Shown one piece after another: positions 3,732-9,742 of a DNA stretch of 53,880 bases. The notes below the pieces were generated by a model. That model was not told where the DNA came from. It worked only from the letters and a program-made list of their open reading frames with translations, and did not search any database. Both the position numbers and the translations under genes were made by a program. Within the stretch, counting starts at the first letter, position 1. Each line of letters starts with the position of its first letter. Source of the stretch: a virus (lineage: Duplodnaviria; Heunggongvirae; Uroviricota; Caudoviricetes); the IMG/VR virus record IMGVR_UViG_2617270943_000003, positions 1-53,880 of that record; one strand, given 5' to 3'.

Positions 3732-5153
3732 TTAAAAGGATGCGTTATTCTGGTTATTTCGTGGGGAGAATCGGCTTGCTGCCGGACGTTGTTGCATTGA
3801 CTGGATGCAGGCGGACGCCGCGCGAGCCTGGTTGCATGGAATGATGTTGCCGTTATCGTCAAACCACTGGTAAACAGTCCCCGTTTTCCCGTGACGGTTT
3901 TTTGAAACGATGATCTCCATGTATTCGCGGGCAACCGATTGTTCGTTGTAGTAGCCGTCGCGGTAGACCATGATGATCCGGTCTGCGTCCTGTTCAAGAT
4001 TACCGGAATCACGCAGATCAGAATTGTTCGGGCGCTTGTTCGGTCGTTCCTCAACGCGGCGGGATAATTGCGCCAGCGCCGCCACTGGCACGCGCAACTC
4101 TTTCGCCATCATTTTCAATGACCACGACAATTGCCCTACGGCGAGATCATGACGTTCGGCCTTAGCCAGCTTCATTAACCCGATGTAGTCAATCATTACC
4201 ATCCCCAGGTTAGGATGGTCCTGTTTCATCCGTTCGACGGTGGCGCGTATTTCCTCGACCGTTAACTGCGATGCGTCAACAATCCACACATCGAGATCGG
4301 CAAGGGCACTCATTCCCTGGGCGACGTGCGCCCAACCTTCGTCATCCAGTTTTACCGGATTACGTAGGCAATCCGTTGATAAGTTCCCAGCGCCAGCGAT
4401 AGCACGTTCAGTCATCTGATCGAGCGACATTTCAAGCGTGAACAGCAAAACGCCGACCCGCTGACCTTCGCCGCCAGGGTATGGACGTTCAGCCGCCGCG
4501 CGGGCAATTGCCAACGCCAACGCCGATTTACCAGACCCCGGACGTCCGGCGATAAGCACCAGATCAGTAGCGTTAATGCCTCCTAACATTTCGTCGAGTG
4601 GGTCAATCCCTGTTTTGATGTTGTCAGAGTTCACGCCACACTCCATGCGTTTACTTAGCACTTCCGTGTACTCCTGTACCGCGTCGCGCAACAGCACCGG
4701 AATAATCTTGTCTTTCGTTACTTTTAATTTTGAATACCGGGAATCAAAATATTTCATCGTCTCCCTGACAGCTTCAAGTGTCCCGGTTTCCAGGTTGTAG
4801 CGTATATCGTCCATCAGTTCCAACATTTGCCGCCGCTGATATTCCTCCTGTAATAGAGCGGCGTACCCCTTAAGGTTGGCAGCAGATGGACACGATCGCG
4901 CCGTTTGCATTAGCGGGACAAAATTTTCGTTACCGATTTCATCACCGACCATCAGAGCGTCAATAAGGTTTCTGTTTCTTGCTTGCGCCCGGATGATCTC
5001 AAACGCTCGTTTATATAGTGGAATGGTGAAGACTTCAGGATCGAGCGTAGCAAGAACATCTTGCGCGTTAGGAGTAAGCCCGCCCAACAGGAGGCCACCT
5101 ATCACGGCCGCTTCCCGTTCCTGGCGTAATGAGTTTATTTGCTCAGTCACCAT
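3732..5153 (-). CDS. Replicative DNA helicase, DnaB family
   Basis: DnaB N-terminal domain (AAVIGGLLLGG...KRAFEI), Walker A GRPGSGKSALALAIA, Walker B VMIDYIGLM, and DnaB C-terminal motifs (SRRVEERPNKRPNNSDLRDSGNLEQDADRIIMVYRD). Confidence 0.9.
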   Translation of the reverse strand: MVTEQINSLRQEREAAVIGGLLLGGLTPNAQDVLATLDPEVFTIPLYKRAFEIIRAQARNRNLIDALMVGDEIGNENFVPLMQTARSCPSAANLKGYAALLQEEYQRRQMLELMDDIRYNLETGTLEAVRETMKYFDSRYSKLKVTKDKIIPVLLRDAVQEYTEVLSKRMECGVNSDNIKTGIDPLDEMLGGINATDLVLIAGRPGSGKSALALAIARAAAERPYPGGEGQRVGVLLFTLEMSLDQMTERAIAGAGNLSTDCLRNPVKLDDEGWAHVAQGMSALADLDVWIVDASQLTVEEIRATVERMKQDHPNLGMVMIDYIGLMKLAKAERHDLAVGQLSWSLKMMAKELRVPVAALAQLSRRVEERPNKRPNNSDLRDSGNLEQDADRIIMVYRDGYYNEQSVAREYMEIIVSKNRHGKTGTVYQWFDDNGNIIPCNQARAASACIQSMQQRPAASRFSPRNNQNNASF

Positions 5154-5171: not shown

Positions 5172-6290
5172 TTACAAAATGGAATATTCAGGGTAATAAA
5201 CAAAGCGCCCGATCTCCCCGTGATCAGGACTGTAAATTATTACCGCCGCCAGCCGCCGCGACCGCCAGCCGCCATTCGTTGAATAAGCGTCTTTGCCAGC
5301 TAACGTGCCGTGGTACTCAACAACGCCCAACGATGATTCAATCAGCCGTTGGTGATGCCAGTGTCCACAATGAGCGTAAACAGACGACGACTTGCCGAAA
5401 TCCTCCCGCCAGTCAGAAACGCAGGCAGAAAGTAAATTTTCTGGCTTTTTGATAGTGTGCCCGTGGTGGTAAGCAAGAAATGTTTTGCCGTACTGTGTGT
5501 GATGGACGATAGCAGGTGACACATCAACCGTCACACGCGGTTCATCTTCGTAAAAAGCCGCCAGCGCAGCACGTAGCCAGATCATACCTGATTGGTCGTG
5601 ATTACCGGATAATACTTGGATCTCGACATCCTTATGATTTAGTAACATCTTCCCGACCGCACGCCGGACCGACCGGATCGCCACGTAAACAAGTTTTGCG
5701 TAGCGTGAATCACAATCCAAAACGTGATTACTTGATGGCGTCACTGGTAACAGTCCGTCAGTGTGGAGCACATCCCCTCCTAACAGCAAAACAGCTTTTT
5801 CAGACATCGGTGCAGCGCCTACCGCGTAGTCGAAGAAGTCATTTAGCACGCGTTCAGCGATCCCGGTGTCGTAGCTCTCACCGCATTCAGCTTTATGAGC
5901 AAGCGCCCCGATATGCAGATCGAATACCGGATAAAGGGCCAGGCTTTTTTGAAAATCAATTTCCGGCACTGGCACGGCCTCCGCGCGGGGTATTTCTTCC
6001 GTGAAGGCGTCACAAGCAGATTGCATTAGCATTTCCATTTCATCGCGGTCACGGGCTGTTTTAATCCAGCGCATAATCACATTGCCATCCTTATCGACGA
6101 GCAATGACTCAGCATTGACGCCAAAACCCGGTGCGCGGCGCGTGGATATTAAACCGCGTTTCGCCAACCGTGCGCCCAGGCGTTCGACGTTGCGTTTTGC
6201 CATGCCATATTTTTCTGCGATCTGTTTATACGTCAGACCGTTATTATGTTCAGCGATTAACTGTTCATCGCTGATCTTTCTTTGTGACAT
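5172..6290 (-). CDS. HTH domain fused to calcineurin-like metallophosphoesterase
   Basis: N-terminal HTH (LTYKQIAEKYGMAKRNVERLGARLAKRGLI) and metallophosphatase motifs in canonical order: DLH, GGDVLHTD, GNHD, HHGH, GHWHH. Confidence 0.7.
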   Translation of the reverse strand: MSQRKISDEQLIAEHNNGLTYKQIAEKYGMAKRNVERLGARLAKRGLISTRRAPGFGVNAESLLVDKDGNVIMRWIKTARDRDEMEMLMQSACDAFTEEIPRAEAVPVPEIDFQKSLALYPVFDLHIGALAHKAECGESYDTGIAERVLNDFFDYAVGAAPMSEKAVLLLGGDVLHTDGLLPVTPSSNHVLDCDSRYAKLVYVAIRSVRRAVGKMLLNHKDVEIQVLSGNHDQSGMIWLRAALAAFYEDEPRVTVDVSPAIVHHTQYGKTFLAYHHGHTIKKPENLLSACVSDWREDFGKSSSVYAHCGHWHHQRLIESSLGVVEYHGTLAGKDAYSTNGGWRSRRLAAVIIYSPDHGEIGRFVYYPEYSIL

Positions 6291-6451
6291 AACGTTAATT
6301 CCTCCGGTTTACAGAATGTATATTTATTTTCCGTAAAACGCGCTACAACGCAAAAACCCACCGCGTAACCCACTTGTAAGGGTGCAGTGTCTTTTTTGCG
6401 CCAGAAGCGCAATCAGGTGGCTAATTTTCGATTTTTAAGGTAGAAGGGTAG

Positions 6452-6553
6452 TTATGGATTAACTAGTAGATATAAGCCGCCGAACAAGGCGACGTTAACA
6501 GCGATAGCCATCGCGATCGCGAAAGCCAGGGCGAACATGCGTTTACCGTTCAT
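6452..6553 (-). CDS. Putative small hydrophobic peptide (33 aa)
   Basis: MNGKRMFALAFAIAMAIAVNVALFGGLYLLVNP with GAGAGGA Shine-Dalgarno-like sequence upstream; lies in an otherwise ORF-free 350-bp intergenic region. Confidence 0.25.
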   Translation of the reverse strand: MNGKRMFALAFAIAMAIAVNVALFGGLYLLVNP

Positions 6554-6686
6554 AGCTAAATCCTCTCTGAAACGCTCCATAACGAGCTAATCGCAAAAAG
6601 GTAAGCAAGTGTAGCACCCCATGCGATTTAGCTCGCTGGTGAGGTTGTTTTGTGGGTAATTTTGGATTTTTGCGGATCGTAATTGG

Positions 6687-7739
6687 TCAAAGAACGCCAG
6701 CGCGCGTATCACGTAGCGTTTTTGGTTTAAGCAGAAAATCAAGTGTCGCAGTGAAGCCATTGCCGAAGTAAAAATCTGAAGCCGTGTTTTTGAACGTTTC
6801 GAAGTAGGCGACAAAGCCGTTAATGCTTTTGTCTTTCAGGTAGTCAGTGAACGCATAGATCTTGCGTTCAAGATCCCGATCCAGTTCGGCAGGTGGTAAC
6901 AGGCCGTCAAACGTGCTGTTAAATGCTTCCACCACGTCGGCAGCGTTTACAGTAGCTGATAGCTTGCGCCATTGTTCAGCATCAGCCAAATACCCATCAA
7001 ACTTAGTTACCCGGCAAATGTTGATAGGCTTAGGTGTTCCACCACGGCTACGCCATTGCGTTAAAGCCCACTCAATCACTAATGTGATCTCATCCTCCGT
7101 ATACGCTTTACGTGTTTTTGTTTCTGTCAGTAGTTCTACGAATGGCTTAGCATCACGACATTTGCATCCTGCCTTGTCGTTGTAGAAGGCAAGGCAACGC
7201 AATGCCGCTTCGTTTACGCCATCCTGATTGACCATTTTTTGTTCATTTTCGACAATACACGAAGTGTATATATCTTTTTCTCTTTCTTTTTCTACTTCTA
7301 ATTCTAATTCATGACCCTTTCCTGACCCGGTCATGACCCTATCATGACCTTTTTGTGTTGGATTGATTAACTTTTCTAATTTTAATTGCTCCTTCGCTGT
7401 GTTTATGGCGGCCCTGTAAGCGCTTTTAGAAGTCATTGATTGGTCCAGCCTTTTCAATAACTTTAAACAAGTTATGTGGCCTTGAGAACATTCAAACAAA
7501 CCAATTTCGATGAAGTATTTCATCATTTCTTCTATACGTTTTTCAGTAGATCCGACGTTTCGCGCAATTATTCTTGCGTCATGTCGTAGGTCAAAAGTTA
7601 GATTGTGCTGATCTACGTCATAAGTTATTAGTTCTAGGCAATACCAATAAAGCCCGTACCCTTCCAGGCCATAATCTAATAAAACGTTTTGAAGTTTTTC
7701 ATCGCGGTTCGCATCGCTATCATGCTTAAACCACTTCAT
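6687..7739 (-). CDS. Phage replication initiation / replisome organizer protein (DUF4373-like N-terminus)
   Basis: N-terminus MKWFKHDSDANRDEKL...YGLYWYCLEL is characteristic of phage replication organizer proteins; it sits upstream of the DnaB-like helicase in the same operon. Confidence 0.65.
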   Translation of the reverse strand: MKWFKHDSDANRDEKLQNVLLDYGLEGYGLYWYCLELITYDVDQHNLTFDLRHDARIIARNVGSTEKRIEEMMKYFIEIGLFECSQGHITCLKLLKRLDQSMTSKSAYRAAINTAKEQLKLEKLINPTQKGHDRVMTGSGKGHELELEVEKEREKDIYTSCIVENEQKMVNQDGVNEAALRCLAFYNDKAGCKCRDAKPFVELLTETKTRKAYTEDEITLVIEWALTQWRSRGGTPKPINICRVTKFDGYLADAEQWRKLSATVNAADVVEAFNSTFDGLLPPAELDRDLERKIYAFTDYLKDKSINGFVAYFETFKNTASDFYFGNGFTATLDFLLKPKTLRDTRAGVL

Positions 7740-7742
7740 AGA

Positions 7743-7997
7743 TCATTCCTCCGGCAATGCAATGTCATAAATGTCGCCGTATTCGTCAGCGCGTTTAATG
7801 AATCCTTTGCGGATCAATGAATTTAAAGCGTCAACAGTAGTATGCAGTGGCAGTTCGCACACTTTTGCGATCTCTTCGCGTGAAGCATGTGCGCGGCCTT
7901 TGTTGTCTGCCTTTTCTGCAAACGCAATTAAGACAAGTTTTTGGATCGGGCTGTTAAGTTTTACGTTCCATACTTCATTCATCATGTGCATACTCAT
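7743..7997 (-). CDS. Small HTH DNA-binding protein (first gene of leftward operon, Cro-like position)
   Basis: 84 aa, winged-helix-like segment SREEIAKVCELPLHTTVDALNSLIRKGFI; divergent from the repressor gene; AGGAGA Shine-Dalgarno-like sequence upstream. Confidence 0.45.
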   Translation of the reverse strand: MSMHMMNEVWNVKLNSPIQKLVLIAFAEKADNKGRAHASREEIAKVCELPLHTTVDALNSLIRKGFIKRADEYGDIYDIALPEE

Positions 7998-8303
7998 CTT
8001 GTTTTTCTCCTATGGTTAGAGTGAACGCGCGGGCGGGCATCCCATTAGCATTAGATAGCAGTGACTGACCGCTGAACAGATCCCGCCGTTGCGTGATATT
8101 TGTTTTTCGCTTCGCAGCGACACCGGGTTTTTAAAGAGCTTAAGGTATGTGCCTTTTTGTGCCTTCCGTTATCTTTTTCCTTGCGTCTTTGCAAGTATGG
8201 CCTTACCTTGTCTGCAAGTTTACAAAATGGAATTTTAAGATCAAGGCTTAAAATACACGTTTTGTGACTTGCATCAAACTTTTTGAGGTTATAGGGTAGC
8301 GAC

Positions 8304-8951
8304 ATGAAAACAAAATGGTATGACTTAGCAAAGCAGCTCATGCGGGCGCAGGGCATGAGTCAGGATTCACTCGCAGATCTCATGGGGATAACTAAAGGCG
8401 GCCTGTCACACTGGCTTAACGGTCGCCGCGAGCCAAATCTTGAAGATATTGCGCGGATTATGCGGGCGCTTGGGCGTCGTCAGTTCACTGTTACACATGA
8501 TGGTATGGTCATTGATGATTCTGTTTCTAATACACTTCAGGCCGCACCGCCGCGTGATTTAGGTAGTTACCCGGTTATTGACTGGAAGGACACAGTAAAC
8601 AATATGGATGACACAAGGCGATCAGCATTACCACACGTTACGACTAGCGTTATTTGTTCAGATGATAGTTACTGGCTGGTTGCCAAAGGTGAATCAATGA
8701 ACGCGCCGCAGGGGTTGAGCATCCCGGCGGGGACGATGATACTTGTTGACCCGCACGCGCCAGCTATTGACGGCAAACTGGTTATAGCCCAGCTTGAGGA
8801 AGGGCAGATACCGACGTTTAAACAGTTGATTATTGATGGAGGTCAAAGGCTTTTACGTTCGCTCAATCCGCTGTATCCGCCAATCCCTATGAATCCAGAA
8901 TCAAAAATTATAGGCGTGGTGGTTGATGCGAAGATCGTAAACCTGCCATAA
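8304..8951 (+). CDS. cI: CI-like prophage repressor (XRE HTH + LexA/S24 peptidase domain)
   Basis: N-terminal HTH (MSQDSLADLMGITKGGLSHWLNGRREP) and C-terminal S24 autopeptidase motifs (AKGESM, catalytic Lys in VVDAKIV). Confidence 0.9.
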   Translation: MKTKWYDLAKQLMRAQGMSQDSLADLMGITKGGLSHWLNGRREPNLEDIARIMRALGRRQFTVTHDGMVIDDSVSNTLQAAPPRDLGSYPVIDWKDTVNNMDDTRRSALPHVTTSVICSDDSYWLVAKGESMNAPQGLSIPAGTMILVDPHAPAIDGKLVIAQLEEGQIPTFKQLIIDGGQRLLRSLNPLYPPIPMNPESKIIGVVVDAKIVNLP

Positions 8952-9102: not shown

Positions 9103-9451
9103 TGCGAGTCAAAGGAAGGGCGCAGGTAACAAAAGCAACTTCCTGGCACTTTAAAAATCAGGCTTAACACCTTGTCAACCGTGGAGTAACTCCCCGATGG
9201 GGGACCGAAAGCGGCACTGATAACAAGGCGCATGGGGTGTTTAAAGCGTTACATCCCCCACGAAACCGCACGCAAGGCGACGAGTCAGCTTGCTTGGAGT
9301 GAGCAAGGTCACGCCGGGAACGGCGATGATTGCGGGATTAGTTGAAAGATGTTAAGCCGCTCATTAACAATCTGGTCAGCCGCTGGAAGTGCGGCAATTA
9401 ACGAAGATGATTTTTTATTAAGTGTCATCAAGGATATACGGAGATCAGATT

Positions 9452-9742
9452 ATGAGCGTTACAATTATATATGGTAAATGTGATAGCAAAATGAATGCCA
9501 GGGAACGCAGAAGGATAAAAAGAGAAAACGAAAGAAAATCATCACCTGCAATCAATAAAACAGACAATGTGGATAAAGCTATTCGATTTGCAAACGAGGA
9601 AAGATGCAAACCAAATAGCATTAAAGAACGTCGCAAAGGATCAGTAAAATGGTATACGGAAAATGAAAGCGGCAGCTACTACCACGCAACGCAACCACGC
9701 CATTTAGGGGAAAAACCCCTGGATAAAGTCCGCTATCATTAA
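9452..9742 (+). CDS. Candidate N-like antitermination protein (arginine-rich motif)
   Basis: First gene after the early promoter; basic 96 aa protein with N-terminal arginine-rich stretch NARERRRIKRENERK; preceded by a ~340-nt untranslated leader. Confidence 0.35.
   Translation: MSVTIIYGKCDSKMNARERRRIKRENERKSSPAINKTDNVDKAIRFANEERCKPNSIKERRKGSVKWYTENESGSYYHATQPRHLGEKPLDKVRYH

Follow-up and report, generated by a model that had tools for sequence, protein, structure and literature searches.

The 396-base region between positions 6291 and 6686 of the window, by which we mean the whole stretch of 53,880 nucleotides analysed here, is probably the intercistronic part of a leftward early operon with an ordinary layout, in which a hairpin, the gene of a small membrane peptide, a terminator, and a slot for accessory genes follow one another. 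As judged from its sequence, the window represents a temperate coliphage of the mEpimmI group: the region shares 98.7 % identity with Escherichia phage MagusPhagus and 82-88 % with the phages mEp010, mEp013, and mEp044, and it also occurs in prophages of 35 out of 5,426 complete E. coli genomes. Members of the mEpimmI group are Nus-dependent, non-lambdoid temperate siphophages with a cI-like repressor, and their N-like antiterminator Gp17 acts at nutL, nutR1, and nutR2; several terminators were mapped as well (PMC11893012). The supplements of that paper contain nothing on either terminators or the origin.

In agreement with the preliminary description, the region is located between a gene with HTH and metallophosphoesterase motifs and a gene for an initiator-like protein. 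The features of this neighbourhood are as follows:

3732-5153, minus strand: gene of a DnaB-type helicase
5172-6290, minus strand: gene of a protein that combines an N-terminal HTH with metallophosphoesterase motifs (DxH, GDxxH, GNHD, GHxH; PHROG 704)
6291-6686, minus strand (sense): region studied, between two large ORFs
6687-7739, minus strand: gene of a Lin1244_N initiator-like protein (domain search)
7265-7349, strand not applicable: probable origin inside the initiator-like gene, with iterons and an AT-rich tract
7743-7997, minus strand: gene of an HTH_36 protein (domain search)
8095-8140, minus strand: nutL candidate, with a boxA-like sequence ahead of a small hairpin and an A-run
8304-8951, plus strand: cI gene
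9422-9742: gene of the N-like protein

Gene order and strands thus place the region between cistrons of a leftward early operon, with the minus strand as its sense strand. A promoter scan detected no sigma-70-like promoter on either strand of 6291-6686, and the -35 candidates found by inspection (TTGCTT and TTGCGA) lacked an acceptable -10 hexamer at 16-18 nt; expression of the small ORF within the region is therefore expected from the operon transcript. A nut site at the end of the initiator gene was considered and discarded, as the boxA there (CGTTCTTTGA) has two mismatches from YGCTCTTWA in the window, and the nearest hairpin lies about 50 nt downstream and is devoid of a short A-rich loop of the boxB type. 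The nutL candidate at 8095-8140 appears to be the better match.

Within the region itself, we distinguish the following elements, listed against the direction of transcription:

6291-6340, minus strand: junction between terminator and phosphoesterase gene, an empty cargo slot as seen by comparison with relatives
6349-6400, minus strand: intrinsic-terminator-like element with A-tract, stem, and U-tract, absent from the preliminary description
6396-6412, minus strand: short hairpin UUGCGC-UUCUG-GCGCAA (folding)
6417-6436, minus strand: direct repeat copy 2 (sense AAAAATCGAAAATTAGCCAC), past the stop of the small ORF and ahead of the terminator
6452-6553, minus strand: 33-codon gene of a single-pass hydrophobic peptide, MNGKRMFALAFAIAMAIAVNVALFGGLYLLVNP (ORF and purifying selection)
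6561-6567, minus strand: Shine-Dalgarno sequence GAGAGGA of the small ORF, 7 nt ahead of its ATG
6581-6637, minus strand: hairpin A, an imperfect stem-loop of 57 nt (folding)
6605-6617, minus strand: conserved apical motif of hairpin A, GTGCTACACTTGC
6652-6671, minus strand: direct repeat copy 1, sense AAAAATCCAAAATTACCCAC, in a C-rich, G-poor spacer just past the stop of the initiator gene

In the model that we propose, the minus strand would be transcribed from a promoter adjacent to the gene of the cI repressor, and the transcript would present, one after the other, an A/C-rich unstructured spacer with repeat 1, the 57-nt stem-loop, the 33-codon gene, a spacer with repeat 2, and the terminator. 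The peptide would be made early in infection from this operon transcript, while the terminator would keep unmodified RNA polymerase from reaching the genes of the phosphoesterase and the DnaB helicase, which would then be expressed only once the N-like antiterminator has modified the polymerase at nutL. The terminator might at the same time form the upstream edge of a slot for interchangeable accessory genes. We infer that termination and antitermination take place in vivo and that the hairpin and the repeats have roles of the kind discussed below.

The 33-codon ORF is a real and conserved gene, as its sequence evolution indicates. It was correctly recognized in the preliminary description as a hydrophobic minus-strand ORF with a ribosome-binding site; a longer, 42-codon form starting at 6580 was discarded, as its start is not conserved (the ATG is ATA or AGA in relatives). 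The module, taken to span the end of the initiator gene through the terminator, was sampled at 45 loci; these comprise 38 distinct sequences, 36 of them carrying the ORF. The ORF is intact in 34 of these 36; of the other two, one has ATT in place of the ATG and one is affected by an alignment artefact at its stop codon. The Shine-Dalgarno region (AGAGAGGATTT) is kept in nearly all relatives. Variable columns number 12, 11, and 26 at the first, second, and third codon positions of the 36 relatives, mean dN and dS amount to 0.067 and 0.439 (dN/dS about 0.15), and 14 residues including K4, N20, and G25 are invariant across 19 protein clusters.

The encoded peptide is basic at its N-terminus (K4, R5), comprises about 26 hydrophobic residues, shows conservation of N20 and G25-G26, and presumably inserts into the inner membrane as a single-pass protein. 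The gene is annotated as "hypothetical" in four phage records and the protein clusters of the peptide are named "putative membrane protein" or "hypothetical"; in the 35 E. coli RefSeq genomes with a match, PGAP left this position without annotation throughout. Searches of the peptide against Pfam (even at E <= 10), NCBIfam, PHROG, and PADLOC gave no family match. A profile search of 1.84 billion representative proteins yielded five matches at E <= 0.001, three of them full-length, and a metagenome scan added only three close relatives. Ipe, a known small protein of mEp021, was considered as well, but with its 72-83 aa is a different gene. One homologue (P0023), 70 % identical, is encoded on a contig (L094) distantly related to rV5-like virulent phages, amid many small early genes and equipped with a ribosome-binding site and a strong terminator of its own. 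The flanks of this locus are entirely different and include none of the flanking elements seen in the window. Its presence in such an unrelated context suggests that the peptide represents a self-contained function, which moved between unrelated phages.

Upstream of the gene, the inverted repeat that had been noticed earlier (GAGCTAATCGCA at 6584-6595 and TGCGATTTAGCTC at 6622-6634) turned out to be the base of a longer structure, hairpin A, which continues from a base stem (AGCGAGCUAA / UUAGCUCGUU) into an inner stem of 5 bp and then a small apical stem. On the minus strand it folds with -28.7 kcal/mol (z = -5.8), versus -23.0 kcal/mol (z = -4.1) on the plus strand, and each of its variants folds at about -15 to -28 kcal/mol, most of them being stabler on the sense strand. 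Among 21 distinct versions, 84.3 % of the cells are paired versus 82.3 % in shuffles, with 2 of 500 shuffles reaching the observed value. Covariation is weak (22 of 500 shuffles reach the score), and the inner stem is broken in 5-8 of the 21 variants. Distances at the hairpin arm and the repeats are 0.08-0.11 versus 0.22-0.26 at neutral proxies. No Rfam match was obtained either for the whole window at gathering thresholds or for 6200-6800 at E <= 10. By analogy, we infer that hairpin A is a retained sense-strand stem-loop acting at the RNA level, for processing or stability. The motif GTGCTACACTTGC in its apical part is nearly invariant in the alignment and looks more like a sequence-specific site than like a structure. 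A reading of TGGTGC-N5-TTGC in the apex as a sigma-54 site was rejected, since the GG or GC dinucleotides are lost in two relatives (L005 and L096).

Downstream of the gene, the element at 6349-6400 has the anatomy of an intrinsic terminator and would be expected to act as one in vivo. Its stem, CACUGC-ACCC...GGGU-UAC-GCGGUG (core 6359-6389), is followed by GG and a run of five U (6352-6356). On the minus strand, the element with its A- and U-tracts has a folding energy of -25.5 kcal/mol (z = -3.8), versus -17.6 kcal/mol (z = -2.1) for the plus strand. To assess its conservation, each sequence was folded separately and 14 distinct versions were aligned after re-anchoring. Energies of -12.9 to -16.3 kcal/mol were obtained for all 13 sequence variants (core hairpin in the window: -12.9 kcal/mol), each of which continues with U4-U6, and most of which have a 7-bp inner stem with a GCAA loop. 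In the 14 versions, 96.1 % of the cells pair, one pair shows a compensatory change from C-G to A-U, and three pairs make use of G-U wobbles, whose counterparts on the other strand would be A-C mismatches. The stem is bulged and separated from the U-tract by 2-3 nt, and a simple consensus terminator scan did not list 6349-6400. The adjacent short hairpin at 6396-6412 forms its full 6-bp stem only in the window, Magus, mEp010/mEp013, and one further locus (L026), most others having at most 3 bp; it is probably no independent element because most relatives have AGCGCCTCTGACGCAA instead. A 2023 paper on antitermination in mEp021 reportedly deals with terminators t1-t5. In phage lambda, the terminators tR1 and tR2 lie in an early operon and are overcome by N antitermination. 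Given the dependence of the mEpimmI group on Nus factors and an N-like protein, we read the element at 6349-6400, by analogy with tR1/tR2, as possibly gating the expression of the phosphoesterase and the helicase.

Comparison with relatives further indicates that the gene belongs to an exchangeable cassette. In two loci (L005, from E. coli KKa019, and L041), a 77-aa MarR-like ORF replaces the small ORF between the same flanks and is preceded by a motif like GTGCTACACTTGC, and in L096 the small ORF and the MarR-like ORF stand in tandem, with the GTGCTACACTTGC-like motif occurring a second time before the latter. Judged from these arrangements, hairpin A and the two direct repeats are a conserved scaffold around an exchangeable ORF cassette. 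A further site of exchange lies about 20 nt past the U-tract and before the phosphoesterase gene, where relatives carry insertions of 0.55-1.2 kb with alternative genes, encoding a Zn-ribbon-repeat plus a T5orf172-like protein, a Bro-N/KilAC antirepressor-like protein, or a 351-aa protein.

The two direct repeats (TGGCTAATTTTCGATTTTTAAGG at 6418-6440 and TGGGTAATTTTGGATTTTTGCGG at 6653-6675) exist as previously described, with 19 of 23 positions matching. The best ungapped pair of 20-mers (6417-6436 and 6652-6671) matches at 18 of 20 positions, a value never approached beyond 16 of 20 in 300 dinucleotide-preserving shuffles of 6291-6686, and a search of the 53.9-kb window for the motif AAATCNAAAATTASCCAC with up to three mismatches recovers these two sites alone. 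The repeats bracket the unit formed by hairpin A and the ORF, and each is located past a stop codon in a C-rich, G-poor spacer, with a large hairpin about 15-25 nt further downstream. Repeat 2 has a mean pairwise distance of 0.080, the lowest among the non-coding segments, and repeat 1 one of 0.103 (36 relatives), compared to 0.224 at third codon positions of the ORF and 0.258 in the spacer after the stop codon as neutral proxies; the repeats are thus 2-3 times more conserved than neutral sites, a finding of limited weight because the relatives are closely akin (80-99 % identity). Furthermore, repeat 2 is retained where another cassette replaces the ORF. The repeats may serve as boundary of cassette exchange, as protein-binding site, or as Rho-binding site. 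A complementarity of 12 nt between repeat 1 and the U-tract of the terminator was dismissed as it consists of low-complexity A- and U-runs, with no covariation seen in the alignment.

Could the region instead act at the level of DNA, as an origin or auxiliary origin in which the repeats bind the initiator, DnaA, or IHF and the hairpin forms a cruciform or a signal for single-strand initiation? The preliminary description had raised an origin with iteron-like repeats, and the position directly downstream of the initiator gene, the excess of the repeats over chance together with their conservation, and the presence of TTACCCACA in repeat 1, which agrees with a DnaA box at 8 of 9 positions, would fit such a role. 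However, there are only two copies, 235 bp apart, with neither helical phasing nor an AT-rich unwinding tract: the GC content across 6300-6700 is 0.43-0.48, and the minimum of the neighbourhood (0.365) is found at 7200-7400. DnaA-box-like and IHF-like matches in the repeats are no more frequent than in shuffles, neither copy in the window matches the IHF core within one mismatch, and G-U pairs make both hairpins stabler as minus-strand RNA than as the complement. Moreover, a canonical iteron array with an AT-rich tract is present inside the initiator gene, where four TCMTGACC iterons with a period of 11 bp (7309-7349) adjoin a purine-rich, AT-rich tract (7265-7310), and all five TCMTGACC matches in the 53.9-kb window fall within 7265-7349. 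At the same position, relatives possess either TCMTGACC iterons or a second type, AGTGTCAC/AGTGACAC dyads with a period of 22-23 bp, so that the iteron type is swapped among them. This arrangement suggests that the replication origin probably lies at 7265-7349, and such a lambda-type array inside the initiator gene makes an origin at 6336-6686 unnecessary. The iteron origin proposed earlier for the region was hence not borne out, and a DNA-level element of this sort appears very unlikely to us.

Two further readings concern the small ORF and its surroundings. A membrane-damaging peptide held in check by an antisense sRNA or by a hairpin in cis, that is, a system akin to type I toxin-antitoxin pairs, would agree with the size, the single hydrophobic helix, and the basic end of the peptide, all typical of such toxins, with the strong structured element 25 nt upstream of the Shine-Dalgarno sequence, and with the movement of the gene between unrelated phages as a self-contained unit. 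Of the toxin locus with antisense or structured RNA suggested in the preliminary description, a real hydrophobic gene and a sense-strand structure upstream of it were indeed recovered, but not a promoter, an antisense signal, or a family match: the gene is situated inside an operon rather than in a transcription unit of its own, with no promoter-like site on either strand of 6291-6686, the antisense (plus) strand folds no better than shuffles (z = -0.6), and neither Rfam nor the toxin families of Pfam gave a match at E <= 10. In addition, hairpin A sequesters neither the Shine-Dalgarno sequence nor the start codon, and the flanking RNA elements are all missing around the homologue in L094, all of which renders a toxin of this type unlikely. 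Alternatively, the ORF could be a regulatory one, translation of whose 33 codons would set Rho loading or terminator formation and thereby the expression of phosphoesterase and helicase. In favour of this, 52 nt separate the end of the ORF from the terminator stem, both stop codons are followed by C-rich, G-poor spacers, and in distant relatives a small hydrophobic ORF abuts the Shine-Dalgarno sequence of the phosphoesterase gene. Yet it is the amino-acid sequence that is under purifying selection (dN/dS and invariant residues as given above), a homologue is kept where such downstream genes are absent, and a MarR-like gene can take the place of the ORF with the flanks retained; we regard a purely regulatory ORF as most unlikely. 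We hence favour the ordinary intercistronic arrangement with a gene for a membrane peptide, followed by a putative terminator.

A separate observation was made in loci of distant phage lineages whose phosphoesterase is 54-67 % identical to that of the window; 39 out of 41 such loci examined have a hydrophobic ORF of 21-31 codons directly upstream of the phosphoesterase gene, one example being MWRLFALPFPVIIATAIMYKIIMLGA. The stop codon of this ORF abuts the ribosome-binding site of the phosphoesterase gene. The family of 21-31 aa follows the pattern M-W-R-L-F-x-L-P-x-P-V-I-I-A...M-Y-x-x-V-M and shows signs of purifying selection (dN/dS about 0.38 at dS about 1.2). A comparison of the 33-aa family with these distant small hydrophobic ORFs by hhalign was not significant (probability 5 %). 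As both families are encoded just upstream of phosphoesterase-DnaB pairs, one might speculate that small single-pass membrane peptides are functional partners of the HTH-metallophosphoesterase/DnaB replication module, which we consider quite unlikely; if true, such peptides could tether the replication machinery to the membrane or regulate it there.

For a widespread group of gut coliphages, our analysis corrects the annotation by an overlooked 33-codon gene, locates a likely control point in the terminator ahead of the helicase genes, which fits the Nus dependence of the group, and identifies an adjacent hot spot of accessory-gene exchange. It also points to a probable origin inside the initiator gene, with two interchangeable types of iterons. 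The understanding of phage operons is not changed hereby, and a wider interest resides only in the function of the peptide.

To date, comparable arrangements are known from several systems. The window shares with lambda tR1/tR2 a terminator-like hairpin with a U-tract inside an early operon and upstream of essential replication genes, and its phage group is likewise Nus-dependent with an N-like protein and nut sites (PMC11893012). It differs in that the putative terminator is located between the initiator and the helicase gene and has a long and bulged stem. The probable origin resembles lambda ori in gene O, with four phased repeats and a purine- and AT-rich tract in the middle of the gene, coding for a low-complexity linker; in contrast to lambda, however, the initiator belongs to the Lin1244_N family and not to that of O, and the array, at 7265-7349, lies outside the region studied. 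With type I toxins and other small single-pass proteins such as TisB, DinQ, Hok, and Fst, the peptide has in common about 30 residues, one hydrophobic helix with a conserved polar residue and small-residue motifs, and a basic terminus, but unlike these it is embedded in an operon and lacks a family match, an antisense RNA signal, and an own promoter. The cassette is also reminiscent of morons and other exchangeable cassettes, as a different gene replaces the ORF between conserved flanks in some relatives, a terminator follows the ORF, and a neighbouring slot receives alternative cargo, whereas no own promoter was found and the ORF, far from being sporadic, occurs in nearly every group member. 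Finally, hairpin A bears a resemblance, but no more than that, to the RNase III hairpins in the early region of T7 and in the lambda N leader: although its covariation is weak and it belongs to no Rfam family, it is similarly intercistronic, about 20 bp long, irregular and bulged, and stabler on the sense strand.

The region that probably serves as the replication origin, judged from its sequence, lies inside the initiator-like gene (6687-7739), in a window whose further features comprise a phosphoesterase gene, an accessory-gene slot and putative antitermination parts:

7265-7349, candidate replication origin: four TCMTGACC repeats with an 11-bp period and an adjoining purine/AT-rich tract
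5172-6290 (-), gene between those of the initiator and DnaB, for a 372-aa protein with an N-terminal HTH and metallophosphoesterase motifs
6250-6274, inverted repeat whose 12-bp arms, TCAGCGATTAAC and GTTCATCGCTGA, flank a single G, in the opening codons of the phosphoesterase gene
6291-6340, accessory-gene slot that separates the phosphoesterase gene from the terminator, empty here
8095-8140 (-), candidate nutL on the leftward transcript: AGCTCTTTAA, followed by the hairpin TCGCTGCGAAGCGA and an A-run
9422-9742 (+), N-like protein gene downstream of cI, with the arginine-rich motif NARERRRIKRENERK

At the position of the candidate origin, relatives carry one of two iteron types, either TCMTGACC iterons or AGTGTCAC/AGTGACAC dyads with a period of 22-23 bp, and this alternation at a single position suggests that initiator specificity has been swapped among them.

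The neighbouring gap varies in its gene content. Among the homologous loci L015-L049, the slot is occupied by Zn-ribbon-repeat/T5orf172-like genes (166-312 aa), by Bro-N/KilAC antirepressor-like genes (236-256 aa) or by a 351-aa gene. Between the same conserved flanks, the 33-codon ORF is replaced in two loci by a 77-aa MarR-like winged-helix ORF (L005, E. coli KKa019, 4130-4360; and L041), which in L096 (959-1192) instead comes after it; in KKa019 the PGAP annotation covers only a 50-aa fragment of this ORF. Directly upstream of distant HTH-phosphoesterase homologues (L050-L092), 39 of the 41 loci examined encode a hydrophobic ORF of 21-31 codons, ~10-100 nt from the phosphoesterase gene (for instance, L051 2899-2988 and L077 2917-2997), with the pattern M-W-R-L-F-x-L-P-x-P-V-I-I-A...M-Y-x-x-V-M and a dN/dS of ~0.38. 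This family showed no detectable relationship to the 33-aa peptide.

Within the gap itself, 6349-6360 and 6663-6674, separated by 302 nt, are complementary over 12 nt (11/12), pairing the terminator U-tract region with the 5' part of repeat 1, the direct-repeat copy at 6652-6671 (-). Both being low-complexity A- and U-runs, this match is probably due to chance.

At the position that corresponds to the inverted repeat at 6250-6274, the annotations of the related phages mEp010, mEp013 and mEp044 place 'T1', an ARNold-predicted terminator on the plus strand. The 372-aa protein matched PHROG 704 ('DNA repair exonuclease'), and neither a Pfam family above threshold nor, by sequence, a solved structure was matched. 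Its gene stands in the position expected of a helicase-loader gene.
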